Assembly (NCBI RefSeq): GCF_035084215.1
Contig: NW_027138407.1
Span: 868,001-932,000, forward strand
Length of the DNA stretch: 64,000 nucleotides
From: Heptranchias perlo
Lineage: Eukaryota
Direction of reading: 5' to 3'
In this document: piece by piece, positions 18,174-51,849 of the stretch
Layout of the letters: each line of letters begins with the position of its first letter
How positions within the stretch are numbered: position 1 is the stretch's first letter
Notes under the pieces: generated by a model
Seen by the model: the letters and a program-made list of their open reading frames with translations, nothing else
Database searches by the model: none
What the model was told of the DNA's origin: nothing
Position numbers and translations under genes: made by a program

Positions 18174-18212
18174 AGATATTGTACGAGAGCTGCGCCTTTC
18201 CCCCACACCGTG
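18174..18212 (-). other. 23-RSS
   Basis: CACGGTG + 23 + ACAATATCT on the minus strand. Confidence 0.88.
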
Positions 18213-18603
18213 GCTCAAGGCACAGTAATAGATTCCTTTATCCGACAACTCTGCCTGGTCGATGCCGAGTGTGCTCAGTCTTTGATCCCTGTCGGTGTAG
18301 ATCTTAAACCGGCCTTGCTGGTCCTCTCCTTTGAATCCACAATGAATGAATCCCGGGGCCACGCTCAACAGTCGGCTGTACCAACAGATGCTATTGGTCG
18401 TGTTGAACTCGCACGGAATCCTGACGGGATTTCCTTCCACTGCGAACTCTTCGGCAGGCTGAGAAATCTGGGCGAAACTCGGAGCATCTTTGAACACAAT
18501 TTGAGAATTGTTAGATTCAGAATATTTATAAAGTACGGTGATTGGAATCATATGTGAAATACTCACAGGACACAAACAGCAGGAACACTTTTATTACGCC
18601 CAT
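18213..18603 (-). CDS. TCR V segment, family C with extra Cys pair, intact (leader 18603-18567, V exon 18487-18213)
   Basis: MGVIKVFLLFVS|gtgagt; aaag acceptor; VRIPCEFNTTNSICWYSR..FIHCGF..GRF..SDKGIYYCALS. Confidence 0.9.
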
Positions 18604-20840: not shown

Positions 20841-21434
20841 AGAGCAGGCAAGGCGGGTAAGAGCGAGAGCATCAAATGGAAGGTAAATGGAGGGATTCAA
20901 CTGACTCAAATTGGAACGAATTCAAGACTCTGTGTAACCGCAGAAAGTGCGCGGCGCTGATCAGTTGCGCTCGGAGCTGATGGAGCGGAACTGACGCTGC
21001 TTGGGTCTTACGAAGTTAGTGTCCAAACTGCCTCTGCTGACCGATCAAGAGACTGGGAGTGAAATGAAGGGAAGAGACAGATCAGAAATAATGAGCGGGT
21101 TTAATCAGTTCTAATTTAGATCGTTGACAGACAATATCCGGGCACACGTCCTTTTATACATGATCCAAAGACGCTCAATCCCCTCAATTACCTCATTCCA
21201 AACCGGTTTAAAAAGAATGCACAGCAGAGGGCGCCAACCGCACACATGCTAATTAAGAGTCACGTAGTGCAATCACTAAACCAATTGCGGTCGTAGCCGG
21301 AGTTACGTCACAATCAGGCCGGCCCCCTGCAGTGTGTGGGTGGAACAATGAGCTGAAGAGCCACCAGGTTTCCTCTCTCCATCTCAATCTCCGGCTCATT
21401 CAATTCCCAGTCACTGTGAGGGATTCAGCCAGAC

Positions 21435-21952
21435 ATGTTTCTAATAATACTGGCGGCAGTGTTGGACAGTAAGTACCGGATTAAAGAACACATGTTTGCA
21501 GATTGATTCACAGAGCTTGTCGGAGTTAGTGCAATTACCGATCAGAAATATCTCTATGATAGACAGCTGGGTAGATGGAAGGTTACACACTCACACAGAT
21601 AGACACACATTTAGTTCGATTCTGTTTAAACTTTACTGTTTTTTGCCCTATCTTCATAGACGGACTATGTGCAGATCGAGTAACTCAGTCTCCGTGGGCA
21701 AGAGAAGTGTCGGAAGGAGGATCGGTGCAGTTAGATTGCGAATATACAATCTCGGCTATTAACGCCATGCAATGGTATCGGCAAAAACCGACACAGCCTC
21801 CAAGATGGATAATTAGCAAAGTAGCAGGACTGAAGGAAGACGAAATCTCAGGACGATATCTGGCGGCTCTTAACGAGTCTAAAAAGTACGGTTACCTCAA
21901 TATAAGCAGCCTGAGTGTGGAGGACGGGGCGGTCTATTACTGTGCAGTAAGG
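21435..21952 (+). CDS. TCR V segment, family A, intact (leader 21435-21468, V exon 21660-21952)
   Basis: MFLIILAAVLD|gtaagt; ADRVTQSP..QLDC..MQWYRQ..EDGAVYYCAVR; RSS CACAGCG (21953) + 23 + ACAAAAACT (21983-21991). Confidence 0.93.
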
Positions 21953-23151
21953 CACAGCGTCCGATAAAAGCAAAGGCCCCGTACAAAAACTTCAGCGAGT
22001 ATTTACAGCTCCATTAGGGTCTGGATGGTAACAGATAACCGGTGTTTGGTGAGCTGTGATCAGGTTCGCGAGGTACTTGTGTCCGCCTCTTTACCAGTAA
22101 TCATCTGATGGTTTTTAGCACGAAAACTTCAAAACGGATCTCAAACGGAATTATTAATTCTGTTTAAAACAGCCCGCGTGAGGCGAGGTTACCGGGAGCG
22201 CCTTCAACCGCTCAATGCTAATAGCTATTTTCAGGTATTAAAAGATTAACTTTGCATCCTCCTTCTTTCTTTCTTTTATTAATTTTCTATGTAATGATCT
22301 CTCCTACATATGATTAAGAGATAGATAGGCAACCACACCGAGGCGCGCACATACATGCAGAATACTCTGAGCCATTTCCGAGGACCAGGGAGCTGTTTTA
22401 TCTATGTTATCACCAATATTGTGTGGAGCGCACGCTCCCTGTCTGACAAGGGATTCCCAGAAGGGAATTGGATACATACCAGAAGAGGAAAAAGTTGCAC
22501 GGCAATGTGGTTGTGGAACTAATTGGTAGCTCTTTCAAAGAGCCGGCATAGGCATGATTGGCCGAATGACCTCATTCTGTGCTGCACGATTCTCCGATTG
22601 CATCGAAAGAGGACAGAAGAAAAATCAAAGAGACACTAGGGGGCGACATTGGCCCAGGAGAACGATCACCATGTCGTTTCAGGTTGTGGCCATTTGTTGG
22701 CTCCGTGGAACGAATTTCCGTAGTCTCTCGGTCGCTGTTTGCTACATGTAAAATATCACCAACTGTTCCCCGGTAACACTAAAAACAGCTCAGTACGGTC
22801 TATATAAAATGGCACTGCTACTTGCAGTGAACGAAAACATGAGGGGTGGGAATAATTCCTCTGTTCACAGAGTGCAGCGAATCGTAAATCCTTCCGCGGA
22901 GATTTCCTCAGGTCTCCATCTCTAAATGAACCCAAAATACGTTCTTTGTGAAATTAAGTTTTACACACACGCAGCGAACAAAGCAATCTCCCCCACGCCT
23001 ACCCCGCCCCTCCCTGACGGCGTGACATCGTCACAAACGAATGTGACGTGGTTATGCCAGTCATAGGTTTAATAGTTCAGTCTGGCACTGGTGGCAGTGT
23101 TTGCGACTGCAGAGAAGTGGTAAATGCTCACATTGTGAACCCCTGAGAGTG

Positions 23152-23595
23152 ATGTGTTTCCCTGTTTATTTCAGTGGGGTTTTGGCCTTGTTTACGTTGT
23201 GTAAGTACACGAGGGATCCGAGTACAAAAAACATCAATAGGTCCGGTTAGTGGGTCGGATATCTGTAAATGTTCAATTTCTCTTGCAGCCGACAGCGTTG
23301 GTGGCGATTCCGTTCATCAAGACTATTCGGCCAGGACGGTGCGGGAAGGAGATATGGTGACGCTGAATTGTAGTTTTACAACAACAAATACCGACCCTAA
23401 TATTTTCTGGTACCGGCAGTTTCCCGGTCGGGCGCCGGTAAATGTGTTGCTTATTACCAAATATGACACGTTCCCAGCCGACTTCGCCAGGGAACGTTTC
23501 ACGGCAAAGCTGAACGCAGAGGAGAGCGCGGTTTGGCTGAGAATTTCCGTGGTGGAGCGGTCAGACAGTGCTGTGTATTACTGCGCTCTGAGACC
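23152..23595 (+). CDS. TCR alpha/delta V segment, family E, intact (leader 23152-23200, V exon 23289-23595)
   Basis: MCFPVYFSGVLALFTL|gtaagt; DSVHQ..VTLNCSF..IFWYRQFPG..SDSAVYYCALR; RSS CACAGCT (23596) + 23 + ACAAAAACT (23626-23634). Confidence 0.93.
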
Positions 23596-23994
23596 CACAG
23601 CTGCACAGCTCCGAGCCCGTCCTGTACAAAAACTGCAGCACTGTGTGTAAACCAAACAGTGTGTATGGCCGGACTACGCGTCTGTAATGGTCCGAATAGG
23701 ACAGTTACTTTCAGCACACAATATCCCCACAGGGCAGCTCCCATCGGGTCTGAATAGAGGAGTCCGAATTTAGATTTAATTTATTCTTCAGTGAGGGACG
23801 AACAGGAGAAACCTCGCACACGTTTAATAGACCAACCGACCGTGTAATGTGTTCAAGTTTCCCCGCTTCACTGCATTTTTCATCTTTTTCACACCACATA
23901 AACCAACACAAAATATGCAGCTTTGCTGAGATTTGGGGTTTAATCAGCGGGCTCTAACCCATCACATTGCTGAGTGTTTGTTTCATTTCTGCCG

Positions 23995-24230
23995 GTGTGT
24001 GACGGCTCGCCGAGAGCATTAAGTTCATTGTCCTCCAACATTTGCGTTTACACCGAGGAGTCCGCTCTCTGGGGTGGATTTCCTCTGGTCGCTATTTCTA
24101 GCGACGCAGTGAACGCATTCTAAAAGAAGGAGTAACGATTCCACTAACCGAGCGATCACAGGAGATCTCCCGCTCTGTTTGCGATGTCGCTAACACACCG
24201 AGACCAGAGGGAATCATCCCCTTGTGAGTC
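23995..24230 (-). pseudogene. Possible heavily deleted V relic (paralogs at about 39410-39630, 45880-46100, 61160-61380)
   Basis: Minus-strand fragments VLATSQTE.. and NAFTASLEIATRGN..ADSSV*, then gacaatg and a weak nonamer. Confidence 0.35.
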
Positions 24231-24361
24231 CACAGCAGAAGGCTAAACAAACCCGACCCCTGTCAACCTCCTCAGTCTGATTAGTGACAACGAATGAAAT
24301 AAACTGAACATCTTCATCTGCATTCAAACAATATTTTTTCTCACTTTGGGTCGACTATCCT

Positions 24362-24458
24362 CACATCAGAGATCAGCTTTCTCTCTGATCATACTCTCTC
24401 TCAGGTCAATTCGAGATTAAACTGTCTCTCTGGTCAATTAGAGATCAAGCTGTCTCTT
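24362..24458 (+). repeat. 28-bp minisatellite (about 3 units) upstream of family F V
   Basis: tcaattagagatcaaactgtctctcagg-like units. Confidence 0.75.
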
Positions 24459-24645
24459 TTTATTCGTGTTGCTCCCTCTGCTCTGCAGGATGTGACGTTA
24501 TAATCCCAATTCTCTGAAATCAACACATGCTTGTGGTTAAGGAAGTGACATCAGTCCAGCCCCAGCCGGCGCTCTCAGCTCCTTCCGTTTGATTTTCTGC
24601 AGGTTTCTGAGGCACAAAAAGCCCCTCGAATCCGAAGCAGCAGCA

Positions 24646-25732
24646 ATGCGGCTCCCTGTTCTCAGTGTGGTGTGTGTGACATTCATTTTCGGTAAGAAGG
24701 TTGAAACTTTTAAAAGGGGTTAATTGCTGGAGGAAAAGAATTGAAAAGCATAGAAGTTAGGTTAAACTTGTATAGAACCTTGCTTCGACCTCACTTGGTG
24801 TACCGTGCATAGTTCTGGTCTCCATTTTACACAAAAACAATAGATGCACTGGAGAAGGTGAAAAAACTTACTCGGCTGATGCCAGAACTGAATGGTTACA
24901 ACTATCAGCAAAGATAGAACTGGCTGGGCTTCATTTCTTTAAAAGGGGAAGGCTGAGGGGTGACCTGAAAGAGGGCTTTAAAAATGATGAAGGAAATTGT
25001 TAGGGTAGACAAAGAGAAAATGTTTCCGCTGGTGGGAGAATTCAAAATTAGTGGTGATAAATATCAGATAATCACTAATACATCCAGTAAGGAATTCAGA
25101 AGGAATTTCTTTCCCCAAAGAGTGGTTAGAATGTGGAACTCGCCGCCACATTGAGTGGTTGAGGCGAATAGCGCAGATGCATTTAAGCGGACGCTAGATA
25201 AGTACGTGAGGGACAAAGGAATAGAAGGTAAAATGAAGTGGGATGGGAGGAGGCTTGTCTGGAGCACAAACATCGGCATGGACCATTTGGGCCGAATGGC
25301 CTGTTTCTGTGCTCTAAAGTCTATGTAATTCTATGTAAAACTCACTCCGCATTTAGATACATTTTCACCGTCAGTTCAGTTTGAACTTTTAATCGATGAT
25401 TTCCGCTTTCTTTTACCGTGTGTTCCAGATTTGAGCGATGGCGTTTCTGTTACTCAGCGGGAGTCCTCGGTCACACAGACAGAGGGTGAGGCTGCCACTT
25501 TAAACTGCACCTATACCAACGATGGTGATTACTTATTCTGGTACCGCCAATACCCAGGCAGAGAACCCGAGTTTGCAGTCCGGAGGCACACGAACGGCGG
25601 TAATGAATATCAGGCAGATTTCGCCAAAAGCCGTTTTTCTGATACAGTCCTGAAGTCGGACAAGTTGTACCGTTTGAGGATCTCGGACCTGCAGCTGTCT
25701 GACACCGCGGTGTATTACTGTGCACTGAGTCT
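24646..25732 (+). CDS. TCR alpha/delta V segment, family F, intact (leader 24646-24691, V exon 25429-25732)
   Basis: MRLPVLSVVCVTFIF G|gtaaga; VSVTQ..ATLNCTY..LFWYRQYPG..SDTAVYYCALS; RSS CACAGTG (25733) + 23 + ACAATAACT (25763-25771). Confidence 0.93.
24725..25335 (+). mobile_element. CR1-like fragment in the family F leader intron
   Basis: LYRTLLRPHL.Y..FWSP; RRNFFPQRVVRMWNSP; gggccgaatggcctg tail. Confidence 0.88.
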
Positions 25733-28700
25733 CACAGTGATGGGAACGAACGAAAGCCTCGTACAATAACTGTCGCAGGTTTCTGGGTCACAGACTCTGT
25801 CTGTTGCGGGCTATTTATGACTGCGTGTCATTCACTTACTCGTGAATGTATTCCTGTGCGTGGAGACCCCGAGCAGAAACCTCACTTAAACCGTTCACAT
25901 CGAATACCAATTCCTTCGGATTATTGTGTTAAATGTGTGAGGGCAGAATGTGGTTCTGTTTATTTGTGTGGATCAGGGAACTCGCCAGTCCCATTGAGAA
26001 TACCGACACCCACAGGTGGATTGGAATTGGTTATAACGGTGCACTCTTGCTTCGGATGTAACACATGGCAACGGCCAAAAAATGATTGGTTTAAAATATC
26101 AATCTGCAGTGTAGGCAGAGGTCGGCCAGGTGGAGAAAACCCCAATAATTCCAATCACTTCATTAAACGTTTCTCAATATTAAAGACACTTACATATTAA
26201 AACTAAGAAGCTCCAATATATGCAGTTTCTTAGTGGTCATATTCAGGGGAAGATTATAAGCTGATGAACAAGCAATAATGGACTAATAATCTATAAGAAC
26301 AGACATGGCATGTTCTCGGCACTGGGCCACATAGTCAGAGGACGGACTGAATGCAAGAGACTAATAGAGAACGCATCAGAAAAGATGCAGTAGCGAGATA
26401 AAAACCGTGAAAAGAACAATGTACAAAGACGAGAGAGCGTCGCGCAAGATGACTTAATGGATTGAAGTGTTAGGTATTAATTAAAACTAACCAGAGCATG
26501 TTGACATGTTACGATCACGGCAGCAAGACGTTACTAAAACTATGGAAGGTAAAACACAACAAAGTTGAGGGGACTTAAAGGATAGGAGCTTGAGGCAGTC
26601 AAGGAAGGACATGAAATCAATACTGCTCTTCATTGGAACGGGCAATATCGCTTCTGTTATATCTATTGCCTTAGCTGGTAAGATTGTTAGCAATCTGACG
26701 TATTAACTGTGCTTTGTCTTGAAATAAAAACAACTATTTAATGACCTCAACAGTTGGGTATAGTCTCCTTCTGAATTTCTGACAACAGCAGCGCGGAAAC
26801 AGTCGTTCACCGAAATGAAGACAAAATTCTCAGGCAGAAATTCTAAATTATTCCACTGGATGGCACCAAATCCATAGGAAACACACGGGTGCGTCTGCAT
26901 GCAAACCCCAATCTGTGCCCGTGTCACAAAGGAGTTCGCTCACACGCAGAGTCGGCCATTAACTGCTGAACTGCTGAACTTAGGTTGCTTCATATAACGT
27001 CACCCTTTGGTTGGTCTGGGACTTGTCTGCCAGCAACTCCATGTTTTTAAATCTTTTTGTGATCCCAGAAAGCACTCGGGTTAAATTGGTGAGTTCACCT
27101 GCCCTCAGAGGAGTGGATTCGCCATCCTGCCTCTATCACACTCGATGAACCCTGCGTAAAAAATACAGAGTCCGGTCACTTCTACAAGGTCGAAAACCCA
27201 TTCGGTAAATAACTTCACAATCGGGTTTAAGATGATCTGATGAGAAATGTGCAAATCCATTGGTAAAAATGGTCCTTGTATCTGATTGGAGCAGCTTAGT
27301 CTGACTGACGAACTCCTCGAGTGAGGAAGCTTCACCGGTGAAGAAGCAGACTTGGAGACCATTGAAAATCCGAGTAAACCATGGAAGGGCCCAGGAATGG
27401 CTCAGGAATCGTGTGTCACGAGGAATGACTCACAGAAAGTATTAAAAAAAATATTCTCGGGATGTGGATGTCACTGGCAAGGCCGGCATTTATTGACCAT
27501 TCCTATTTGCCCTGAGAAGGTGATGGTGGGACTTTTTCTTGACGCGCTGCAGTCTTACGGTTTGATACACTGATTCACTTCAGGAGGCAGTTAAGGGTCA
27601 CCCAGGTTTATTGTGAGACTGGAGTCGCAAGAGATAAGGCCGGATAAGGACGGCAGGTTTCCTTCCCCGAAAGGGACATTAGAGAACAAGTTGGATTTTT
27701 TAGAACACTCTGACAGTTTCACGGCCACTTTTACTGATACCAGTTTTTTATGTCCAGATATTTATACGCTGAACTCACGTTCTCTGGATTACGCGTCTCG
27801 GAACACACCCACTGCACTGACATACTCTGTGAGAAAGTTACAAGCAACTCACATTGGAACAGGAAAGGAAAATCGCGTCTGTTTTAATCACATTCCATTA
27901 CATTTCGATTGATTTGTTTGTTAGTCGATTGTGGCTTTCGTCTTATGTCCATGTAAACTTTCTGTGCAATGAATATAGCGTGGGTTTGTCGGCCAGGACA
28001 CCGGGAGAATTAATTTGCGACGTTTTTACGCTTTTGCAAAATATGCAGGATAAAAGACATTCTTCACAAATTCATTCTCAATGATCCTTCGTACCTTAGA
28101 ATACAAAAAAGGTGATTCAGCCGCTCAAATCTGCACTTTCGTTCTCGCTCCTCACACCCTTCAACAAACCTCTAAATCCCCAATGTGCTTCATTTTTGAT
28201 ACAATTCACGCATAGTGAGTCACTTAACACGTTCTGGCAAAATATTCGACATTCTTACCTCCTCTGTAAATAATGTTTTCTGACCATTAAAATGTCTCTT
28301 TCTCGGAGTGATATTTCCCTCTGGAGTTAATTTTATTCGTCCGTCTGTTTCCACAGGGACCAGTAAAGTTTCTTCTTTCCTTTACTTTGATTCAATCTGC
28401 GATTCACCGGTTGGGTTGATGACCGGTCACCTCCTGCTGTGATTTCCTGGATTAGGTGTCCAATCTGCTCAGAGATTCTCTCCGCTCAAAACGACGCCCT
28501 CAGTCTGTCGGCAACGACAATAGCGGCAGCTCTGGGCTGGAAAGAGGTTGGGAATTTGACTCAGTTAATGACTCGGCAATGGAGGACCGCGGCTCCCACA
28601 ATCCACAGCGGCAGAGAAAAGTCAATATCTGTGACACCAGGCGCGCGGCACTCTGGGGAACTGTTCGCACATGCGCACCTCACCAATTTTTTTTAACCCA

Positions 28701-28979
28701 ACGCTTTTTTTAATTCTCTCGCATGTGAGACTTTCACTTTTATCGAACAAGATGGGGCAGTTATTTTGATGGAAACTGAAGGCACTTTTCGTTTCTATCG
28801 ACCCGTTTTATGTAAATTAACGGCAGACATGCGCAGTGTATTACAACATACAAACATGGTCGACTGCACGTGGAGAAAACATGGCCCACTGCACGTCACA
28901 CAAAGAAGGCCGACGGTTGGTCAAATAAACATTAACGATTATTCATGTAGCTGTGCAGGTGAATGATTTATTCCTGCGG

Positions 28980-29180
28980 GATAATTAGCAAAGTAGCAAC
29001 ACTGAAAGGAGACGAAATTTCAGGAGAATATCTGAAGACTGTAGACGTGCCTAAATTTTATGGTTACCTCAATATAAACGACCTTCGTGTGGAGGAGGGG
29101 AGTTGGTTGAGAGGGTGGAGGTGGGTTGGTGTCTATTATTGTGCAGTGAGGTACAGCGTCAGCTCAAAGAAAAAACGTCA
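28980..29180 (+). pseudogene. 5'-truncated family A V relic
   Basis: IISKVATLKGDEISG..YGYLNINDLRVEE, a G-rich insert, then VYYCAVR and TACAGCG with a collapsed spacer. Confidence 0.85.
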
Positions 29181-29899
29181 GCGAGTATTTACAGCTTGAT
29201 TGGGTTCTGGATGGGAACAGTTAACTGGTCCCTGGTTAGCTGTCTTCAGGTTAGCGAACCAGTGGTGTCCGTCTCTTTACCTGCAACCGACTGATGGTCT
29301 GTAGCACACACAATTCACAACAGCACTCAAAAGGCAATTTTAGTTCTATTTTAAACAGCCCGCGTGAGGCCAGGTTGCAAGGAACAACCACAACGGGGCA
29401 ATTTATAATTATTTTCAAATATTTCAGCGTAACTTTACATCCTCCTGCTCGCTCTCTTTTATTCATCTTTTCTATATAGTTAACTCTCATATATATGTAT
29501 TATTGAGAGGTAGAGACGATCAAACTGAGGCGCACAATCACAAGCAGAACACGCCGAGCCACTTCCGAGGACCAGACAGCTGCATTGTCTCTCTTCACAA
29601 TATTCCAAATCTTTTATGGAATGCAGCCTTCCTATCAAGTAAGTAATTCCCAAAGTGAAATTAGATACATACCAGAAAAGGAAAAAGAAGTGCAGGGCTG
29701 TGGGTAAAGAGCGGAGGAGTGGGAATAATTAGGTAGCTCATTTAAAAAGTCGACGAAGGCAAGATGGACTGCACCACGTCCTTCTGCGCTGTAGAACTCT
29801 ACGATTCTATGGAATGATCGCAGAAGAAAAGTTAAATCGACGAGTGGTAACATTGACTCAGCAGAAAAGTCACCGCATCATTCTAAGCTTTGCCCATTT

Positions 29900-30002
29900 G
29901 GAGGCTGAGAGTTTGCGTGGCGGAGCTGTCAGACAGCGCCGTGTATTACTGCGCTCTGGGACCATCAGCTGCACACCTCCGTGCCCGTCCTGTACAAAAA
30001 TT
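29900..30002 (+). pseudogene. 3' fragment of a family E V
   Basis: LRVCVAELSDSAVYYCALG, mutated heptamer atcagct + 23 + ACAAAAATT. Confidence 0.82.
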
Positions 30003-30128
30003 GTAGCATTGTGTGTAAATAAAAGTGTGTGGCCGGACACCTCAGTCTCATTCGTGACAGTGAGATAAATCAACTGAATACCTTCATCTATGTTCAAGCA
30101 ATAGTTTTGTCATTTTCCTTCCCTCACA

Positions 30129-30427
30129 TCAATTAGAGATTAAACTGTCCCTCAGATCAATTGGAGAGCAAATTGTCTCTCATATTAATTAGAGATCAAA
30201 ATGTCTCTCAGGTCAATTAGAGATCAAACTGTCTCTCAGATCAATTAGAGATCAAACTGTCGCTCAATTGAATTTGAAATGGAGCAGTCTGTCAGATCAA
30301 ATACAGATGAAATTGTCGCTCCATCAAATATCGATTAAACTTTCTCTAAGATCAATTAGATTTCAAACTCTCTCTCAGGTAAATTAGACATCATGCTTCC
30401 TTTCAGGTCAATTAGAGATCAAGCTGT
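30129..30427 (+). repeat. 28-bp minisatellite, about 11 units
   Basis: Unit starts at 30129, 30157, 30185, 30213, 30241, 30269, 30297, 30324, 30352, 30380 and 30408; consensus TCAATTAGAGATCAAACTGTCTCTCAGR. Confidence 0.92.
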
Positions 30428-30619
30428 GCTTTTATGACGCTCGCTCCCCCTGCTCAACAGGATGTGACGTTCTAATCTCAGTTCTCTGAAATCAACACAG
30501 ACTTCCGGTTAAGGAAGTGACATCAGACCAGCACGAGGTGGCGCTTGTCCCCCCTTCCGTTTGATGTTCCGCAGTTTTACCGCGACACAAGCAGTGCCTC
30601 GAATTCCGGAGCAGCAGCA

Positions 30620-31715
30620 ATGCGGCTCTCCGTTCTCGGTGTGGTGTGTGTGACATTAACTTTCGGTAACTAGGTTAAAACTTTTAAAAGGGGTTCATTT
30701 TTGATGGGATATCATTAAAAAGCAGAAGAATTCTATTGTACTTGTTTCGAACCTTGGTTCGACCTTCTTGGAGTAATGTGCACAGTTCTGGTCTCCATAT
30801 TATAGAAAGGCAATAGAGTCACCGGGGAATGTGCAAAAAAGATTTACAGTAATGATACCAGAAGTGAAAGGATATATCTATCAACAAAGATTGAACAGGC
30901 TTGGTTTATTTTCTCTCGAAAAGAGGAGGCTGAGGGGGGACCTCATGGAGGGCTTGAACATTATGAATGGATTTGATAGGGTAGATGTAGAGAAAAGGAT
31001 TCCGCTCATGGGAGCACCTATAACGAGGCGTGATGAATAAAGTAGTCGCTAATAGAACCAGTACGGAATTGAGAAGAAACTTCTTTGTTCAGAAAGTGGC
31101 TAGAATGTGGAACTCGCTACAACACGGAGTGTTTGAGTGGACGAGCATCGGTGTATTTAAGAGGAAGCAAGATAATACACGAGGGAGAAAGGAACAGAAG
31201 GATATACTGACATGGCGAAATGAAGTAGGAAGGGGGGAGGCTCGTTTGGAGCATAAAAACCGGCATAGAGCAGTTGGGCAGAATGGAATTGTGTCTCTGC
31301 AGAAAATTCGATGTAAAACTCACTCCGCATTTAGGTAGATTTACACTTCCATTTCAGTCTAGCTTGAACGTTTAATGATCGATTTTCGTCTGTTTTAACC
31401 GTGTGTTCCAGATCTGAGCGATGGAGTTTCTGTTACTCAGCGGGAGCCCTCGGTCACAAAATCAGAGGGAGAAGCTGCCACTTTAACCTGCACCTATTCC
31501 ACCGATGGTTATTACTTATACTGGTACCGTCAATACCCAGGCAAACAGCTCGAGTTTGCCGTCCGGAGGCACACGAACGGCCGTGATGAATATCAGGCGG
31601 ATTTTGCTAAAAGCCGATTTTCTGATACAGTCCGGCAGTCAGACAAGATGTACCGATTGACCATCTCGGAGCTGCTGCTGTCTGACACGGCGGTTTATTA
31701 CTGTGCAGTGAGTCT
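30620..31715 (+). CDS. TCR alpha/delta V segment, family F2, intact (leader 30620-30665, V exon 31412-31715); not in the ORF track
   Basis: Manual translation DLSDGVSVTQREPSVTKSEGEAATLTCTYSTDGYYLYWYRQYPGKQLEFAVRRHTNGRDEYQADFAKSRFSDTVRQSDKMYRLTISELLLSDTAVYYCAVS; RSS CACAGTG (31716) + 23 + ACAAAAACT (31746-31754). Confidence 0.92.
30700..31315 (+). mobile_element. CR1-like fragment in the family F2 leader intron
   Basis: QKRFTVMIPE..RLNRLGLFSLEKRRLRGD; same position as the insertion at 24725. Confidence 0.88.
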
Positions 31716-32049
31716 CACAGTGATGGGAACGAACTAAAGCCTCGTACAAAAACTGCCGCAGGTTTCTGGGTCACAGACTCTCTCTGGTGCAGACTTATTT
31801 TTTTTACAGCGGGCCAGACACTGTCACGTGAATGCATTCCTGTGCGCGCACAGCCCGAGCAGACACCACATCACCCTCATATGAAACGTTTCACATCGAA
31901 TATTGAATCCATCTTATTATTACATTAACTGTGTCAGGGCAGAATTTTCTGCTGCTTATTTGTGATTCTCAGGAAAGCCGCTAATCCTTTTGGGAATAAA
32001 GGCACCTGCAGCTGGTGTGGGGCTGGTTATCATAAAATCTTACAGCACA

Positions 32050-34505
32050 TAACATAGGGACAGGAAGAGGCCATTCAGCCCCTCGAGCGTCTTCCGCCAT
32101 TCAATGAGATCATGGCTGATTTGTATCCTCACTCCATCCAACCACCTTGGCTCCATATCCTCATGCACTTGGCGAAAGAAATCTAAGGATCTCAGATTTA
32201 AATGTATCATTTGGGATAGAATCTACTGCATTTTGTGGGAGAGAGTTCCACATTTCCACCATCCGTTGTGTGAAGAAGTGTTTGCTAACTTGCTTCCCGA
32301 ATGGCAAGGCTCTGATTTTAAGGTTATTTCCCCTTCTAGGCTCACCCATCATCGGAAAAAATCTCCCTATCTACCCTATCAATTCATTCAAATTCCTAAA
32401 AACTTCAATCAAATCGCCTCTTAACCTTCTATATTCCAGGGCATAAAAGCCGAGCCAATGTAATCGCAGACGGAGGCCTGTGCCAGCACTCAGCAAGAGC
32501 TAACAATTAGTCCCATTCCCCCTGCTCTTTCCCCAGAGCCCTGCACATTTTTTTCTATTTGAGTAGAAATTCAATTTTCTTCTGAAAGTTACAATTGAAT
32601 CTAATTCCAATGCCCTTTCATACAATGCATTCCAGATTATAAGAACGTACATAATATTCTCCTCTTCTCCCCCCAGTTTGTTTGCCAATTATTTTAAATC
32701 TCTATCATCTATTTACCGACTCCCTTGCCATTGGAAACAGTTTCTCCCTAACAAATCTATCAAACCCCCATATAATTTGAAAATCTTTATTAAATATCCC
32801 TTTAACCTTCTCTGCTCTGAGGATCAAAATCCCAGCTTCTCCAGCCGCGACACATAATTGAAGTCCCTCATCCCTGTTACCATTCATGTAAATATCCTCT
32901 GTACTCCTTCTAAGGCCTTGACATCCTTCCTAAAGTGTGAAGCACATCCACAGGATGCACTGCAGCTACTCGCCAAGGCTTCTTCGACAGCACTTCCCAA
33001 ACCCGCGACGTCTACCACCTAGAAGGAAAAGAGCAGCAGGCTCATGGGAACAACACCACCTGCACGTTCCCCTTCAAGTCACACACCATCCCGACTTGGA
33101 AATATATCGCCGTTCCTTCATCATCGCTGGGTCAAAATCCTGGAACTCCCTTCCGAACAGTACTGTGGGAGAACCTTCACCACACGGACTGCAGCGGTTC
33201 AAGAAGGTGGTTCACCACCACCTTCTCAAAGGCAATTGGGGATGGGCAATGAATGCCGGCATCGCCAGCGACGCCCACATCCCATGAACGAATGAAAAAA
33301 AAAGCCCAGAATTGGACACAATACTCCAGCTGAAGCCTCATCAGTGGTTAATAACAGTTTACCATAACTTCCTTGCGCTTGGACTCTGTGCCTCGAGTTA
33401 TGAAGCCAATGACTGCTTGGGATTTTTTCAACAGCTTTATCAACATGCCGGTATAATGCTGCTTCAGATGTACGACAACCAGACAAATGATGATTGGTTT
33501 AAAATATTATTGTACAGTAACTCATAAACAGGCGTTCACCGAGTTTTGGACTGAATGCAAATTTCTCGTTGAAAAATTCGAACCTATTCCATTAGATGGC
33601 AGCAAACCCTCAAGAATCACACCGCACCATCTGCCTGGAACGCCGATCTCTGCCCGTGGAAAAGAATCATCGAATCTGACAGCTCAGAAAGAGGCTAATC
33701 GGCCCATCGCATCTGTACCGACTCCTTGAAGGAGCTATAAAATTAGTCCCACTCGCCTGCTCTTTCCACATAACATTGTAAATATTCCACCTTCAAGTTT
33801 TTATACAATTTCCTTTTCAAAGGCTACGATTGAGTTTGATTCCAACACCCTTTCAGGCAGTGCATTCCACACTTAAGGAAGGATGTCAAGGCCTTAGAGA
33901 GGGTGCAGAGAAGATTTGCTAGAGTGGTATCAGGAATGAGGGATTTATGTGGAGGTACTAGAGAAGCGATGAATGTTCTCCTTAGAACAAAGAAGGTTGA
34001 GAAAAGATTTAATCTCGATGTTCAAAATTATGAGAGTGTTTGATAGAGTGGTTGGGGAGAAACTATTTCCAGTAGCAGAAGAGTCGACACCCAAGAGGAC
34101 ACCGATGTTAGATAACTGGCAAAAACCGAGAGGGGAGACGAGGAGAAATTTGTTTACGCAGCGAGTTGTGATGATCTGGAATGAATTGCCTGAAAGGGTG
34201 TTGGAAGCAGATTCAACAGCAACTTGCAAAAGGGAATTGGATATATACTGGAAAAGGAAAAAAAAAGCATGTCTATGCGGAATGAGCAGTTGAGTGGGAC
34301 TAATTGGATAGAACATAAGAACATGAGAAACAGGAGCAAGAGTAGGCCTTCCGGCCCTGCAAGCCTGCTCCGCCATTCAATAAGATCATGGCTGATTTCC
34401 TTGCTCAACTCCACTTTCCGGCCCTATCCCCATATCCCTTCATTCCCTCTTTCACGGAGTCAGCAGAGGCATGATGAGCCGATTGGGCTTCTTCTGTGCT
34501 GTATG
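32050..34505. mobile_element. Cluster of nested CR1-like fragments on both strands, with a + strand non-LTR 3' end and poly(A) at 32935-33303
   Basis: HFFTQRMVEMWNSLP (-), SKSWNSLP..A9 (+), NLFTQRVVMIWNELP (+). Confidence 0.85.
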
Positions 34506-34627
34506 ATTCAGCCCACAGGAATTGCACTCTGCGCTGCAGCTGCATCTGACCCTGTTGAAACTGATACGCGCCAAAACAGACCGCAGGCAGTTTTTGTACG
34601 AGAGGAGAACTGGATTATAACACTGTG

Positions 34628-35094
34628 TCGCACTGAAAGAGCGAATGCACAGATATACACCGCCGTGTCACTCAGCTGGAGATCAGTGACGCTTAAAATA
34701 GACACTTTTGCCGATGTGCTTAACTCAGAAGTGAAGCGATTCCCAATATTTTTCGCTTTTCCCCGACTGCTGCGGGCACTGCTCCACAAGATCATCTCCG
34801 GGGAAGTATCAGGATACTTTCGGTACCAGTACAGATCATACCAGCTTGCTGTCGTCGAATAGCTACATTGCGTTCTGAACGTCTGGCCCATTTTCAGGAC
34901 TACAGCCGACCAATTCTGAGACACAGAATCTTCCTGACTCAGATCTGGTGGAAAGATTGAAAGTATTAATTGGAGCTTATTCGTTGGTTTAACAAGAACC
35001 TTTGTTTAACGAAGCTTTCTGCTGTAACATCCTTTAAGTATTTACAAAATGCTAAGCAGCTGAGGGTAGTCAGTACGGCGAATTTGAAATGCAT
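34628..35094 (-). CDS. TCR alpha/delta V segment, family H, intact (leader 35094-35046, V exon 34944-34628)
   Basis: MHFKFAVLTTLSCLAF|gtaaat; DSVSQ..RTQCSY..LYWYRKYP..SDTAVYICAFALSVR; RSS CACAGTG (34627-34621) + 23 + ACAAAAACT (34597-34589). Confidence 0.92.
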
Positions 35095-36020
35095 GATGTC
35101 TGACAATCCCAACCAGCGTGGGTCTCTCGGTGTCGAGCTGACTTCCAATACTCTCCACTTTGCTGGGAAGTTGATTCGGTGTGAGCATTGAGCAGCTCGC
35201 GGCATTATTGTGCAATCACAAATCACGTGCTCCAGGTTGAGCCATTTGCGAACGTACGCTAAACAGCTCTTGAGATGATTGGGTATATGAGCGAGAGACC
35301 TAGTCTGATTGGATAAGCAGCAGTGGCATGTTAATTCATTCTTGGACTGTAGGTGTCGCTGGCGAGACCGTATTTAGTGTCCATCTCCAGTTGCACTGAG
35401 GGAGTGGCTCTCGTTCCATACCATGTGGTTGAATCTTAACTGCCTTGTGAAGTGGCGCAGCAAGAAACTCAGTTGTATCGGGGCAACTTGAGATGGGCAA
35501 TAAATGCTTGTCTTGCCAGCGAAACCCACATCCAGAGAATGAATTTAAAATAGTTCCTGACACAACTCAGCATGTGACTGACCTCACCTCACACTGCTCA
35601 TTGCATCCCCTCTCCTTCCTTCAGCGTCAGTGGTCGGTTTAATCAGTTATATAATATTCTCGGTGTCATCATCTTGCTTTATAAACAATTATTGTGCCAA
35701 TTTGGTGACTTGACGCCTCCTCTATTGTTTCCGATCTTCACATCAGGTCTTTGTCTTTCATTTTCGCCCATTTCCACGGCAGGAACGCCCGGCAGACAAC
35801 TGGTTTCCCCATATTCAGTTGTCTTATGTGCAATGACTTGATGCAGCAAACGAAGCCTGATCAGACAGGAACTTCACTGAGGAGAAAGGATGGTGTCCAT
35901 CGCCCCCTGGCAGGCGGTTCAGACATTTTGCGCAGTGCTCAGGGACAGAGTCTTCTCAAGAAAACGCCAGATCAAAATAAGAAAGGTGAATTTCTTCGTA
36001 TGTTTGCGATGAGAGGTTAA

Positions 36021-37135
36021 ATAGACTATTCCAAACTTGATGCCAGCAATCCTGAAAGACTTCTTTCGGTAACCAAGAAAGGTAAGACGTTAATGATGGC
36101 TTTTATTGTGTCTGGGAAACCTACTGGGAAGGACACCGAGGAGTCTTTGGCAGGGCGATCTGCACAATGCAAAGGATAATGTAGAAAGATTTGTTGTTGG
36201 TTCTGATCGTGCTCGATTCATGCTGCATGATCGAAGCGACGCTTGGGAGATTGAAGACTTCCTGATAGATCAGGAACGCTGTGCAGATGTTACTGTGGAA
36301 GGGCAGGCATATCTTTGAAAAGGAACAGGGAAAAAAATGAAACCAAGACTGATAAGAAGAAAAAAGATGCAGCAGCTTCACAAAAAGCAAACAAAAACGA
36401 ACTGTGATCCAATTGAGTTAGGTGGTGGTCAAGTGGCTACATGAATTGAATTCTTCTTTTGTATTAGATAGCTTGCTTTTCGATGTTGAGATTTTCTATT
36501 TTGGAACGAGTACTGAATCCGTGATGCTGATTTAAAGAGCTCATTTTAAAAGTTTTGGAGTTGAAACTGCTGTGTAAACTCTCAACGTGCATTCCTAATA
36601 AGAAGGTACTGCATCGTGTTTTCTAGTGACTTGCCAGCGTTTAAAAAAGTGATTAAAATGGAAGCCACTAAAGGGGCAGTTAGTAGACTTTATAAATCAT
36701 GTTTACTGCCTGTACCTTGCACCTCCACACTGAATGGGATTTCTCTTCATTTGTTCTATTTTAGACTTCAATATAAATGCAAATTCCTTTGTGATTTAAG
36801 TACTATTTTGATACACAAAAAACATTATTTTCTATTGATGCTTTTTGTGAGCAGTGACTAACTCAACAGACATACGGTTTCTAACTTCAACGTGAAATGA
36901 TTGAAAATGCAACGATTTTATTGTTCATTCAGCAGTGTTATGTATTAAATTGATTATAAAATGTTTGAGGACTCTGCTACATTCGGTACTGCATTCATGT
37001 CGGCAATTCTAATGTCTTCACTCTTCTTCAGCCTTCGTATTGAATTAGCCGAATCTGTTATGGTCTGATCAGCACTGTAGCCATGATACATTTGTCAGTC
37101 TAGCTGTTGTGTATTTTTCATGTATGAAAAAAAAA
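36021..37135 (+). pseudogene. MESD: Processed pseudogene of the LRP chaperone MESD (5'-truncated CDS 36021-36407 plus probable 3' UTR)
   Basis: IDYSKLDASNPERLLSVTKKGKTLMM..VSG.PT.KDTEE / SLWQGDLHNA..VERFVVGSDRA.FML.D.S.AWEIEDFLIDQERCADVTVEGQAY, a Lys-rich tail and terminal KNEL*. Matches the MESD C-terminal half from memory. Contains a frameshift and a premature stop, with no intron. Confidence 0.9.
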
Positions 37136-38238
37136 CAATTCAGTTGTCAGTAACTGCAGATTTTTCAAAGAAAATTGCTCCAAAAATGTGCACACAGTTT
37201 TCCTGAGCTGTTAAAATATGTAGTTAATAATCTCTGGTTTTTATACAATGAAGGAAGATTGGGAACTCCTGTATGTTAAATATACAATCGGAACAAGCTG
37301 ACGTCATGCACTTGCTGCTGAAGGTTCCCCAGCACTCTCGCTGTCGTAACCGCGATGATGCTTTTAAAATTGCTGGAAGTATCACTGTACTGAAATTTAC
37401 TGATAAAACCTCATTCATTCAAACGAGGCAGTATTGATGCGGGTATTTTATTGTGGTGCAGCAATTAGATAAAAGTATCCTGATATGTTTTCAGATTTCT
37501 ATGTTGTAAGCATAGGGCCGAATGGCCTCCTCCTGTACTGTACCTACTGTGGTACAATCGCAGGACAATAGAACCAAATAGATGGCTATTTCAAAGAGCC
37601 GGTACAGGCACGATGGGTCGAATGGCCTCTTCCTGTGCTCTACCTACTATGATACAAAAGTGCAATAAACGGCGATTGATAGAAAGGATAATTCTAGTTT
37701 CACGAAATCAACAAGTTGCAAAATTTAAGTGAATCCATATTAGCATGATAGGTCCTTTGTTCATATACAAATTCAGTCTAAATGTGCAACTGATTTACTT
37801 AACTAGATTCCAGCAACGCTTTGAGGAAATCTGAATAAACTGGACAAGGCTTTATGTAAACACACGGTTTATGTTCCTGGTTCCTGCACACAATAAGCGC
37901 GTTCGATTACTGTGATATACGAGCTGCTGCCTTTGTCTGGTGTGTGCAGCTCCTTGAACGGCTGGAACTCAATGTCAAACTCGGGCAAAATTTCTGCCGC
38001 ATTATTTTGCAGTTGCAAACTGGTCTAAATGACTTAAACACATCTTTGCACTCTGTTGAGGAAGTATCCATCCCAAACGGACCAGAGGAAACCTTCCCCC
38101 GACGCCCTATCTGTTGCTATCGGCTTGTTGTATCTTTGGATGTATTTTAATTCAACACCTTCTGGTGACATGTTTAGAAGGTTCCTATTTCTCGCCACAC
38201 TGCCCGCTATCCCGTTGACCATGTCACATTCCAGCATT

Positions 38239-38800
38239 GTTTTTTGTACGAGGCTCCCTCCGGTTGCTGTTACCGTGGATATCAGCCCGCAGTAATACAC
38301 ACGCTGTCAGACAGCCACAGGACGCGGACCGTGCATTTCCCCTAACTTTTCAAAGTGTCGAGAGAGGCTGAAAATCGAGTCCCTGCGTCCACTGTTCGGA
38401 AAACATCTCCGAAGGACGTGCAGTTGACGAGGAATGTGGGGAATTTGCCCCAGCCCTGATGGTACAGTTGTAAGTATTATGAAGCATCTGTGATCGAATA
38501 GCTGCAACTAATGGTCCCCGTGTCTCTTTCAAAGTGCAGCGCTGCCACCGACCTTTGTGAGACCGAGTCTGCACAACTAACACCTGAGAAATTTTGCTGT
38601 ACATAACGTTAAGCTTTCATCATCATTTTATTATAATTAACATCACAAGGATAGTGGAGTAAATTGCAAATAGGGAGAAAACTTCAGTGAAAGGAAGATT
38701 ATCTGTGTCAATAACACGCGCAAGAGGGAGATTGTGGAACGGTTAACTTTACCAGTTAAGAGAGCCACAGCTCTGACCAATACATAAAAAGTAACATCCT
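38239..38800 (-). pseudogene. TCR V pseudogene, family I (V exon 38583-38278, frameshifted leader about 38800-38754)
   Basis: ADSVSQ..GTISCSYSITDAS*..RFSASLDTLKS*..SDS/VYYCGLI; CACGGTA + 23 + ACAAAAAAC. Confidence 0.87.
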
Positions 38801-38905
38801 ACATGTTTGCAGCGAGTTGATGGCAGATTTGAACAGAACGGGTTGAACGTGGAATTCTTTTGAGTCAAGAGTTGGGAAGATGTTGAGCAATATCCGGCCT
38901 CTCTG

Positions 38906-39083
38906 CCAATTGGCTTGTTCCTGACAGAGTCAGCAGGGAAACATCCAATCAGCTCACAGGGTTTTTTTCTCCAATTCATCCAATCAGCTGATAGCTCCTT
39001 TGTTCTCCTATGCAGCCAATCAGCTTACCCGCCGTTTGTTCACCAATTCATGACGGGCAGATGTGAGGAAGACGTGGGCGGGG
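38906..39083. promoter_or_regulatory. CCAAT-box array plus GC box
   Basis: CCAAT at 38906, 38945, 38971, 38980, 39016 and 39043; GGGCGGGG at about 39076. Confidence 0.5.
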
Positions 39084-40002
39084 CATTGTTACCGCAAGGT
39101 TTGTCTCGAGAATGTGCTGTCGATAACGGGTTTGATCAGAGACACCGTCAGTCAGGATGCAGTCAGCCGCCGAATGAGCGCAATTTACGGTTCATAAAGT
39201 CCTACATCACAGAAGGAGCCCATTCGGCCCATCTTGAATGTTCCCGAACTATCCATTTAGTTCCCACTTCCCTGCTCTTTCCCCATATCCCTGCAAATGT
39301 TACCTTTGAAGGAAAGTTTCAAAAATAGTTAGGTTCTAGACATGTTCAATGAACCTTTATCGGTCACGTTCATGAATGTTTGTTTAATTTATGGCAGTGA
39401 AGAGGGTGATAGATCACCGAGAACATTCAGTTCATTCTCGAGAAACAATTGTGTTTACACGGCGATGGCAGCTCTGTTGGGTAGATTTCATCTGGTCTTC
39501 ATTTTTCGTGTAATCGGTAAAGCATTCAAAAAGAATCTGTTTACCATTTGGCTGGAATCGTTTTGAGAGGAGATTTCCCTTCTGTTTGCGATGTCGCTAA
39601 CACAAAGAGACCAGAGCACATCTTCCCCACGTATGCTCCTGTCCATCTTGTCGTTATTTTCGATAAGGATTATAGACGATGACATTTAACCTCTGCCCAG
39701 ATCAACGTCGTCGAGACAGAGAACTGGAAAATGTTCTCCTTAACCATTGCAAAACAACCGCCGACATAAATTACTTCAAGCTGCTTTATTAAACGCTATA
39801 TCGTTGATAAAAGTGCAATGAATTGGAAAGTGACATCTTTAAATCAGCGTAAAGAAAACGGGTTACACAAATTACCTAAATTTGTTCTATTAAACTGAGC
39901 CCATCTGTAAATGAGGGAACTGCAGTAAGTAGTTTCGTGTGACGCGACCTGAAAGGCGAGGGAGGTTTTTATACAGCGGCTGCCGCGTTTCCACTCAGCG
40001 TG

Positions 40003-40431
40003 CGGCTCTATCGCACAGTAATAGACTGCGGTATCTGCAAACTCCGTGCTGTTAATGACCAATTGGCCGCGTTTGTCCGCAGTGGAAAGGTACAATTCAA
40101 AACGGCCTCCGCTCTCTTTGCCAGACGAGATTCGCCTTATTAGCCACTCCAGTCCCTGACTGGTTTTCTGCTTGTACCAATGCATGGCGTTAAAGCTGGA
40201 TATGTCATAACTACAGTTTATCTGCACCGAATCCCCGATCCGGACTGTTTTCGAAGCGGGAGATTGCAGCACTCGGTCCGCGAGACATCCACCTGTGAAA
40301 ACATTCAGACAATGAAACACTGGAACACAGTGAATAAAACATATTCCCGGTTATTGAGTCCAAATCCTGAACCTACTTGTTAGCAGCACCACAATGGCGG
40401 GTAATACATTCGCTTGTATCGAGTAGCACAT
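40003..40431 (-). CDS. TCR V segment, family D, intact (leader 40431-40377, V exon 40292-40003)
   Basis: MCYSIQANVLPAIVVLLT|gtaggt; DRVLQSP..QINCSY..MHWYKQ..ADTAVYYCAIEP; RSS CACGCTG (40002-39996) + 23 + ATAAAAACC. Confidence 0.92.
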
Positions 40432-40902
40432 CCTCGCAATTAAGATGTAAATAAGAAAACGGCACACAGCTCACATCAGATGATCTCGAACCGAGTGAAC
40501 ACAGTGAACAGTCGGAGAAACAAAGTCAGCGCCGCTCAGTTAAAGTCTCAGTCACGTGTGTCTGCTGCTTTTCGATTGGCTGGTAATAGCTATTATTCAC
40601 ACAAGATGTGCGTAGGCAGTTTGTTGATCTGCTCTCACTTCTCCTGGGTTCACATCTGGACCTATCAATTGTCCAATGGGCAACTCACTCGTCTTGAGGT
40701 GGGACGTGAGTTGAGTCCCATCCCTTTGTGTTAGTCTCTCTCTAAAGAGAGATGCCTGGCGCTGAATGATTGGAAACAAGTCAAACTCTTTCACCGGACT
40801 CGACCGTCCAATAGATGAGCCGGGGTGATTGTAACGGAATCTACCAAAGTGTTGCTCAGAGAGGAGATATTGTACGAGAGCTGCGCCATTTCCCTCACCG
40901 TG

Positions 40903-41294
40903 GCTCAAGGCACAGTAATAGATTGCGGTATCCGCCAACTCTGCCTGGTCGATGCCGAGAGTGCTCAGTCTTTGATCCCTGTCGGTGTAGATCTTAAACC
41001 GGCCTTGCTGGTCCTCTCCTTTGAATCCACAATGAATGAATACCGGGGCCTCGCTCACCAGTCGGCTGTACCAACAGATGCTATTGGTCGTGTTGAACTC
41101 GCACGGAATCCTGACGGGATTTCCTTCCACTGCGAACTCTTCGGCAGGCTGAGAAATCTGGGCGAAACTCGGAGCATCTTTGGACACAATTTGAGAATTG
41201 TTAGATTCAAACAGTTTTATAAAGTACGGTGATTGGAATGATATGTGAAATACTCACAGGTCACGAACAACAGGAACACTTTTATTACGCCCAT
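40903..41294 (-). CDS. TCR V segment, family C, intact (leader 41294-41258, V exon 41177-40903)
   Basis: SICWYSRLVSEAPVFIHCG..ADTAIYYCALS; RSS CACGGTG (40902-40896) + 22 + ACAATATCT. Confidence 0.9.
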
Positions 41295-41739
41295 GGCTGT
41301 CTTTCTTTTCTCCGATCGTTGACGACAGGTTTATAATTCTCGAGTTCAGCTGATTGTGGTTATTTTGGAGACTGCAACTCATCAATGCGCACGCGCAGAA
41401 TCATGCCGCAGACTCCGCCTCTTCACAGCTGCAATGGGTCCGAAGCATCTCTTTCGCCTTCTGGGATTCCATGTTCAAATCGGGGCAATGATTCCCGCCT
41501 TTGGAGACCGGGGGTGGGAATGAATCCCGTATCTGGTTATTATAACCGGGAAGCACAGGATTGTTAATGGTGACAGAAAACTTCCCAGCATTAAAGGGTA
41601 TTTCTGATGGACAATGGACATTGGGGGAACTCTGTGCTCGGAAGTTTTTTTTAAAGAGCACAGTCACCGCGTTGTGAAATCTGTTCATTGTGTATAAACT
41701 TTTTCTAACACGGCAAAATACTGTGATCAAATTAACCTT

Positions 41740-41879
41740 GTGTACAGGCCGCGATCAAACATTCCTAAAAACTGACATGGTTTACCCATCTCGGGGCGTC
41801 AGCTGACCGACGCAGCAGTTTATTACTGTGCGCGGAGACTTACAGTGCGGGAAAGCAGTTGTACCCTCGTAAAACAACT
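41740..41879 (+). pseudogene. V 3' relic (copy of 19040-19184)
   Basis: ISGRQLTDAAVYYCARR; TACAGTG at 41841. Confidence 0.8.
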
Positions 41880-42513
41880 GCCGCCCTTGTGCAGATTAAA
41901 GGTAGAGTGAGTCCAGAGGGAGCAGCAAGAAACATGTGACTGTGGGAATTTTGACACTGTTCGGATACTGGATGAAAACAACCAGTTAGTGTATCTATGG
42001 GACAGTTTCCACCGCTCATTCATGTGTTGCAGCGATACTGATCGCAGATGTTGCTGAACATAAGACCAACTTCATGTTAAATCCTGCTTATTCCGTTTTA
42101 TTTAATCGCTCAACCAAAACTGTTGAATGAAGTTAGTGGTTATTAGTATAATATAAACCACAGAGATGCCGATGAGATGCCGACTATTAATTACTATGTC
42201 ACATGGAGAAGATGCAGATCTGTCTCATGATTCCCACATATCCGATATGGGATGTGAATTAAATCAACTGCTGATATTCTAAACTTGTCTCTGAGCTCCC
42301 GTTATTATCTTTTATCTATAATAAATGCGAGTTCAACTCACCGACGAATATAATTCCGCAAGTGGACCTCACCTGTTCTCCTTGAGTGTTATGTTTTATT
42401 TCCATTTGCAGAACGTCCCCTGTGACTCTCACTGTGGATGCGGAATTATTCGTTTTGTTTATCTGTGTGCGAGCGCCCTCTAGTGAGCACTAATTTGAAC
42501 TTTCAGTGTTGTT

Positions 42514-42844
42514 TTTTTTTGCACGGGATGCGCAAAATTGCTGCATCAGTGTGGTGTTCATGAAACAGAAATACACGGCGGTTTTGGAGATCGTGGCATT
42601 GCCGATGATTAGCTCGGAAATCTTATTCGTTTTATTAAACATGGAAGAGAACCGATTAGTTATGCTGGTGTTCCTGTATCCGTTCAACCGATAATATGAA
42701 GCATGTACTGTGGAGGAAGCCCGGGGTGCTGACTGTACCAGTAAATGTAAGGGGTACTGTCTCCTGTTCACAAGGTGCACGTTAGTGTGACGTTACTTCC
42801 ATCTTCAACCATCATTTCAGGAACCGGTTTCATTGTGTCTTTGG
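42514..42844 (-). pseudogene. Family G V pseudogene with leader and intron deleted
   Basis: Copy of 19812-20142; SKTAVYFCFMN, CACACTG at 42553-42547; joins directly to the sequence homologous to 20952. Confidence 0.85.
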
Positions 42845-43315
42845 CGGCGCTGATCAGTTGCGCTCGGAGCTGATGGAGCGGAAATGACGATGCTTGGGTC
42901 TTACGAAGTAAGCACGCAAACTGCCTCTGCTGACCGATCAAGAGACTGGGAGTGAAATGAAGGGAATCGACAGATCAGAAATAATGAGCGGGTTTCATCA
43001 GTTCTAATTTAGATCGTTGACAGACAATATCCGGGCACACGTGCTTTTATATATGATCCAAAGACCCTCAATCCCCTCAATTACCTCATTCCAAACCGGA
43101 TTAAAAAGAATGCACAGCAGAGGGCGCCAACCGCACGCATGCTAATTAAGAGTCACATCGTGCAAACACTAAACCAATTGCGGTCGTAGCAGGAGTTACG
43201 TCACAATCAGGCCGGCCCCCTGCAGTGTGTGGGTGGAACAATGAGCTGAAGAGGCACCAGGTTTCCTCTCTCCATCTCAATCTCCGGCTCATTCAATTCC
43301 CAGTCACTGTGAGAC

Positions 43316-50500: not shown

Positions 50501-50828
50501 TGGGGAACTGTTCGCACATGCGCACCTCACCAATTTTTTTTAACCCAACGCTTTTTAAAATTCTCTCGCATGTGAGACTTTCACTTTTATCGAACAAGAT
50601 GGGGCAGTTATTTTGATGGAAACTGAAGGCACTTTTCGTTTCGATCGACCCGTTTTATGTAAATTAACGGCAGACATGCGCAGTGTATTACAACATACAA
50701 ACATGGTCGACTGCACGTGGAGAAAACATGGCCCACTGCACGTCACACAAAGAAGGCCGACGGTTGGTCAAACAAACATTAACGATTATTCATGTAGCTG
50801 TGCAGGTGAATGATTTATTCCTGCGGGA

Positions 50829-51749: not shown

Positions 51750-51849
51750 GGCTGAGAGTTTGCGTGGCGGAGTTGTCAGACAGCACCGTGTATTACTGCG
51801 CTCTGGGACCATCAGCTGCACACCTCCGTGCCCGTCCTGTACAAAAATT
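51750..51849 (+). pseudogene. Family E 3' fragment (copy of 29900)
   Basis: ELSDSTVYYCALG + ACAAAAATT. Confidence 0.8.

Follow-up and report, generated by a model that had tools for sequence, protein, structure and literature searches.

The 64,000-nt stretch of Heptranchias perlo DNA analysed here (the window, C240:868001-932000, C240 being contig NW_027138407.1) carries three copies of a V gene family, referred to as family C, with V exons at 18213, 40903 and 62655 (copies 1, 2 and 3). Copy 1 is encoded on the minus strand by a leader exon (18567..18603; 12 hydrophobic codons plus 1 nt, followed by a GT donor), a 79-nt GT..AG intron (18488..18566) and an open V exon (18213..18487) with Cys23, Trp41 and Cys104, beyond which lies an RSS (18174..18212) made up of the heptamer CACGGTG, a 23-nt spacer and the nonamer ACAATATCT. 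The other two copies, also on the minus strand, share this anatomy apart from a 22-nt spacer: copy 2 has its leader exon at 41258..41294, its V exon at 40903..41177 and its RSS at 40865..40902, and copy 3, with a coding sequence identical to that of copy 2, has them at 63010..63046, 62655..62929 and 62617..62654. Heptamer, splice sites, leader and open frame are intact in every full copy, while the nonamer has three mismatches to the consensus. A V-set exon, a spliced leader, an RSS with a 23-nt spacer (in copy 1) and a position in a translocon identify family C as a TCR alpha/delta V family.

What sets the exon apart is a pair of additional cysteines, one immediately before the core tryptophan (W-1; 18384..18386, minus strand) and one 14 residues after it (W+14; 18339..18341, minus strand), both also present in copy 2. 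As FR2 aligns without gaps to human TRAV4, these residues are IMGT 40, in the C strand, and IMGT 55, in the C' strand; in a structure model they fall in strands E30-36 and E42-47, respectively. The sequence-only reading of this DNA had pointed out this pair, and its description of the rest of the exon also held up: there are 64 residues from Cys to Cys when both are counted, WYSR (Ser43-Arg44) replaces WYxQ, and an NTT sequon sits at the border of FR1 with a very short CDR1 of four residues.

To map the surrounding locus, C240:468001-1652000 and the whole of contig C383 were read. Downstream of the V genes, all on the minus strand, we found a D segment at C240:804590, a J array at 804-793 kb with its C exon at 792 kb, a set of 51 J segments at 767-723 kb with a C exon at 718 kb, and 27 further J segments, behind which a C exon at 635 kb resembles that at 718 kb; the alpha and delta labels of these C exons come from position and the presence of the D, not from a named database match. 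The two J arrays of C240:767217-635080 (minus strand), of 51 and 27 segments and each with a similar C exon on its 3' side, are apparently a duplicated J-alpha/C-alpha unit. Family C lies about 82 kb from the D and, because its orientation is that of D-J-C, it would be expected to join a J-alpha or a D-J-delta by deletion. This arrangement of V and D-J-C on C240 is that of a cartilaginous-fish TCR alpha/delta locus. Elasmobranch IgH is described as linked to TCR alpha/delta in the accessible text of PMC12227049, and two IgH-type V-D-D-J-C clusters do lie in the V array here (C240:1051449-1062250 and 1092167-1105300, plus strand), on the strand opposite to the TCR D-J-C. NAR-TCR cassettes in both orientations occupy C240:1160-1477 kb; each of their supporting V segments has its own C-delta-like exon about 3 kb further on (six such exons), and in both of two cassettes examined a J-like frame lies between the two.

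A search of the whole assembly placed family C at five sites: the three window copies, a fourth copy on C383 whose V-exon protein is the same as that of copies 2 and 3, and a 3' remnant at C240:1011364. Copies 2 and 3 stem from a tandem segmental duplication (20951..64000; unit about 21.8 kb, 96-98% identity), and their coding sequences do not differ at any of 312 nt. Copy 1 is 96.5% identical to them, with 11 changes in 312 nt that fall in seven non-synonymous and three synonymous codons, and its DxAxYYC motif is altered. C383 itself is composite: over positions 1-43218, an inverted piece resembling C240:900-940 kb directly abuts one that shares 99.7% identity with C240:804.6-827.8 kb, and the two meet at the D segment near 804583. 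This could reflect a different haplotype, somatic rearrangement or a product of assembly.

To see how unusual these features are, we took a census of the locus, counting open V exons with both canonical cysteines, Trp41 and an RSS (n = 135) and setting aside broken genes, NAR-TCR V segments and V genes lacking the canonical cysteines. Cys40 and Cys55 occur together in 3 of the 135 exons and neither occurs alone in any; the background is set by 8 fixed extra cysteines among the 3629 positions of 41 families. A spacing of 10 between Cys23 and Trp41, corresponding to a four-residue CDR1, was found in 6/135. The rare features of family C are thus the Cys pair and this CDR1. The remainder are not rare: a sequon between Cys23 and Trp41 occurs in 15 exons, Gln44 is absent from 14 (with Arg44 in 6), and the distance of 53 residues from Trp41 to Cys104 is found in 12, with two more being shorter still. 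A lone V gene at C240:839028 (minus strand; L018:1028-1303) carries extra cysteines at W-3 and W+16 (IMGT 38 and 57), together with a good RSS and Glu44; a leader for it was not found within 600 nt by our heuristic.

Among solved structures, the best sequence matches to family C are TCR alpha chains of human, with TRAV4 at the top (E 1e-9) and TRAV1-2 and TRAV26 next. In our trees it groups with the short-CDR2 V genes of the locus and with bamboo shark, turtle, wombat and TRAV4-like rows; support for this wider clade is moderate and below the star threshold (89/91 with 85 rows, 90/90 with 32 rows; 88-95 columns). Together with the 53-residue distance, this grouping places family C in an old, compact TRAV4/TRAV26-like lineage. 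The V exon model, built from a 60-row alignment, has a mean pLDDT of 93 and a V-set fold, with both extra cysteines in adjacent strands, and it matches TRAV1-2 chains with a TM of 0.88-0.92. The likeness to human TRAV4, TRAV26 and TRAV1-2 structures (PDB 7rk7_D, 6uln_D and 6puj_D) thus extends to the V-set fold and the short CDR2 (TM about 0.9). TRAV4 chains align without gaps from Trp41 to Cys104, over 53 residues in both, whereas the CDR1 of family C is three residues shorter, Cys40 and Cys55 stand where TRAV4 has Thr and Gln, and Ser43-Arg44 stands where it has Gln-Gln. Because of the tree grouping and this gap-free alignment, the compactness of family C is taken as inherited, and conventional receptors share it. 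It had earlier been described as a peculiarity of a short domain with a truncated CDR2: short it is, but peculiar it is not, given the other exons of the same length and the match to TRAV4.

V genes of the compact clade, at 6958, 18212, 40902 and 62654 in the window and at 846, 856, 954 and 969 kb on C240, have in common a deviant nonamer like ACAATATCT, which marks the clade outside its coding sequence. When the V exon was used to search for homologues of near or greater length, no close relative turned up, and the best identity in a search of 50% clusters was 42%. A profile of the clade retrieved seven proteins, none of them an orthologue of family C; germline V segments being poorly annotated, these negative results do not amount to absence. 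Matches in the ESM Atlas were to generic V-set clusters only. An assignment to TAILV or IgH-like V was rejected, as the IgH-like clade (817691, 820087, 823055, 1051449 and 1092167) is separate in the tree.

Is family C in use? In run X1, whose label as RNA is a guess, one contig has a joint at 18487/18567 that skips exactly the predicted 79-nt intron (depth 4), and a contig matching the copy 2/3 type continues unrearranged through the RSS; spliced leader and unrearranged sequence together are consistent with germline transcription. No V-J loose end was seen among the contigs examined, which has no bearing on use since contigs drop rare junctions. From the related organism B (run X2) came a 174-nt contig with 12 differences, 11 of them listed: both Cys codons are unchanged, eight other residues are changed, one of these being the Asn of the NTT sequon, and the 57 codons covered contain no stop. 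An assembly artefact was ruled out as the origin of the family, X1 supporting the copy 2/3 type and organism B having an orthologue-like piece.

Family C is probably a functional TCR alpha/delta V family. The opposite reading, in which it is rarely or never used productively, is transcribed only in the germline and carries its cysteines through recent duplication without selection, strikes us as unlikely. There is indeed no excess of synonymous change between copies and no sign of purifying selection in the comparison of copy 1 with copy 2; the X1 contig is unrearranged, and one 3' remnant exists. The weak nonamer and the 22-nt spacer of two copies would also fit disuse, but the clade has four to five further V genes with this nonamer type, and the D segments of the Ig-type clusters of this locus are likewise flanked by 22-nt spacers. 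Disuse is likewise at odds with the intact parts of all full copies, with the leader splicing seen in X1 and with the uninterrupted frame in organism B. As for the cysteines, it had been noted earlier that the pair is kept across three copies, and so it is; as a sign of selection, however, this fails, because copies 2 and 3 are identical and neutral retention of both codons within the genome is expected with p ~0.84. Retention in organism B has a chance probability of ~0.70 and by itself would be weak support for a disulfide.

The closest precedent for the pair is in antibodies. Positions 35a and 50 (Kabat) of rabbit VH are, as we number them, W-1 and W+14, and family C has its cysteines at exactly these places in an FR2 of standard length. 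The rabbit C35a-C50 bond is documented in a 2.3 A crystal structure; according to that report, it links adjacent strands turned towards the light chain, away from antigen, CDRH3 packs on it, and its removal lowers affinity a few fold (PMC10877986). The equivalence with this bond, proposed from the window alone, is therefore borne out on both counts, the positions agreeing by numbering and the rabbit bond being seen in the crystal (PMC10877986). The two systems share the register and the adjacent strands facing the partner domain; they differ in that the rabbit domain is an antibody VH whose bond was established by crystallography, whereas we infer the bond in family C, a TCR domain.

Outside the locus, both cysteines occurred in 1 of 249 V-like domains from 155 matched proteins, namely in P0107. 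Cys at W+14 alone was found in four domains, three of which have a further Cys at W+17, and Cys at W-1 alone in none. P0009 (Phrynosoma platyrhinos) and P0052 are light-chain-like V domains in which Cys at W+14 and W+17 form a CxxC at the start of CDR2. P0107 nests in a different V family (support 100/99) whose other members lack the pair, and a forced clade of P0107 with family C, a group named before the tree was built, was rejected (p-AU 0.003). Since P0107 belongs to another family and the joint clade is rejected, the trees suggest that Cys40 and Cys55 were gained together twice independently; P0107 is a single sequence and may be a pseudogene. The extra cysteines at W-3 and W+16 of the lone V gene at C240:839028 would presumably, from hairpin geometry, form the next rung on the same face. 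The rabbit match, the pair in P0107, this second rung in a setting where extra cysteines are rare, and the retention in organism B favour a disulfide, and a second intradomain bond between Cys40 and Cys55 in family C is likely. We hold with reasonable confidence that family C is an intact germline V family of the shark TCR alpha/delta locus, compact and TRAV4/TRAV26-like, in which Cys40 and Cys55 probably form a second disulfide across the C and C' strands.

Tyr42, Pro50, Phe52 and Tyr103, residues that act in V-V packing, are all kept in family C, and part of the pairing face is built by the J-encoded G strand, which is absent from a germline V. The sequence-only reading had proposed an altered pairing face. 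This did not survive: in addition to the four retained residues, the rabbit bond occurs in VH domains paired with light chains, and the missing Gln44 is shared with 14 of the 135 census exons. An atypical pairing of family C is unsupported, and it is not needed, because the packing residues are kept, the rabbit bond is found in normally paired Fabs and loss of Gln44 is common. One could still imagine a pairing face reshaped by Arg44 and the cysteine pair, with a bond to the partner or to a CDR3 cysteine, or with a domain that has no normal partner. In rabbit VH both positions do face the partner domain (PMC10877986), Arg does replace Gln44, and unusual TCR forms, the NAR-TCR cassettes, do occur in the same shark locus. 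Two cysteines in cross-strand register would satisfy each other, however, and family C, besides its conserved packing residues and the commonness of Gln44 loss, carries a leader and lacks an upstream NAR-TCR V; we regard such remodelling as highly improbable.

With an intradomain bond, the product of family C would contain two disulfides when folded, and its partner would be an ordinary beta or gamma chain. Located beneath CDR3, on the sheet that faces the partner, the extra bond would anchor the very short CDR1 and CDR2 at their bases and would influence how CDR3 packs, like C35a-C50 in rabbit VH.

A more specialized role was also considered, in which the TCR alpha chain encoded by family C is innate-like and invariant or semi-invariant, of the MAIT or NKT kind, its stapled minimal surface reading a non-polymorphic ligand. 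The top fold matches are indeed TRAV1-2 MAIT alpha chains, but such matches follow from loop lengths and the many MAIT entries in the PDB, and the top-ranking sequence match is TRAV4, which serves in conventional peptide-MHC receptors. CDR1 and CDR2 are very short and copy number is low, and TRAV26 has been reported from a public type II NKT population (PMC13736892). Against this, the CDR1 of organism B differs at three residues, the sequon included, which would suit a fixed ligand contact poorly, and invariance, which belongs to the V-J junction, is not legible in the germline. Invariant-like use, as proposed from the germline exon, is therefore unsupported, and we consider this role quite unlikely.

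A relation to the V-delta segments that support NAR-TCR can be set aside. These segments are described as leaderless and as carrying a CDR1 cysteine (PMC1845163). With family C they have in common a place among the V genes of a shark delta locus and a non-canonical cysteine near CDR1, but theirs is single (at W-6 here), while family C has a leader and cysteines at 40 and 55. A leader was found for 3/3 copies of family C and 0/5 of the CDR1-Cys V segments of this locus, by the same heuristic that finds leaders for 109 of the 135 V exons; the one CDR1-Cys segment checked sits behind a NAR-TCR V, whereas family C is flanked by ordinary V genes and a true NAR-TCR cassette lies at C240:1202.7-1209.9 kb (plus strand). 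The leader, the cysteine positions and the missing upstream NAR-TCR V rule out membership in this group, and the earlier view that family C is distinct by virtue of its own leader proved correct.

A germline TCR V with Cys40-Cys55 is not described in the literature or protein sets searched, in so far as the sources were accessible, although the family may already be named in nurse shark papers. The available text of PMC5931798 contains no extra Cys pair and four of its supplementary files no CWY motif; a motif search of 11 of the 19 supplementary files of PMC10322711 gave no match, and the remainder may include shark V sequences. In the accessible portions of PMC4272287 and PMC5382564 there is nothing on a 40-55 bond, and those of PMC8656973 and PMC12698447 mention canonical cysteines only. 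The nurse shark families lie in the same kind of locus, and their V segments combine with alpha as well as delta constant regions; CDR1 has 5-8 residues in the nurse shark alpha clones analysed versus 4 in family C (PMC5931798). When the nurse shark delta-V12 primers given in the accessible part of PMC5931798 were compared with our locus, the reverse primer had 4/19 mismatches and the forward primer 9/19. The reverse primer encodes AIYYCA, an ending confined to family C within the locus; with these mismatches, an assignment to delta-V12 was dropped.

On present evidence, then, family C is one of about 41 V families in the locus and is predicted to have an ordinary role. It extends the structural range of TCRs a little and offers a natural test case for the rabbit-antibody bond. 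A far bolder account would have the C-C' disulfide gained repeatedly in the compact lineage, as an extra bond in family C and as a substitute for the canonical one in a sister family that lacks Cys23 and Cys104, with family C encoding a stapled, innate-like alpha chain; we consider this a long shot. If the repeated paired gain were true, above all if the Cys-less family is expressed, this would show that an antigen receptor V domain can drop or replace its defining Ig disulfide.

That Cys-less family is a stranger lead than family C. Both of its canonical cysteines are replaced, by His23 and Ser104, and it is open in two copies (C240:968404-968733 and 845678-845992, both on the minus strand), with a broken copy in the window at 7408-7606 (plus strand). 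No leader exon was located for it. The second domain of the Heterodontus francisci (horn shark) annotation P0008 belongs to the same family, with the same gene order and 65-68% identity, and P0107, the protein that carries Cys40 and Cys55, is a relative. The copy at 845 kb has a damaged heptamer; the copy at 968 kb has the heptamer CACGGTG, a 23-nt spacer and a plausible nonamer.
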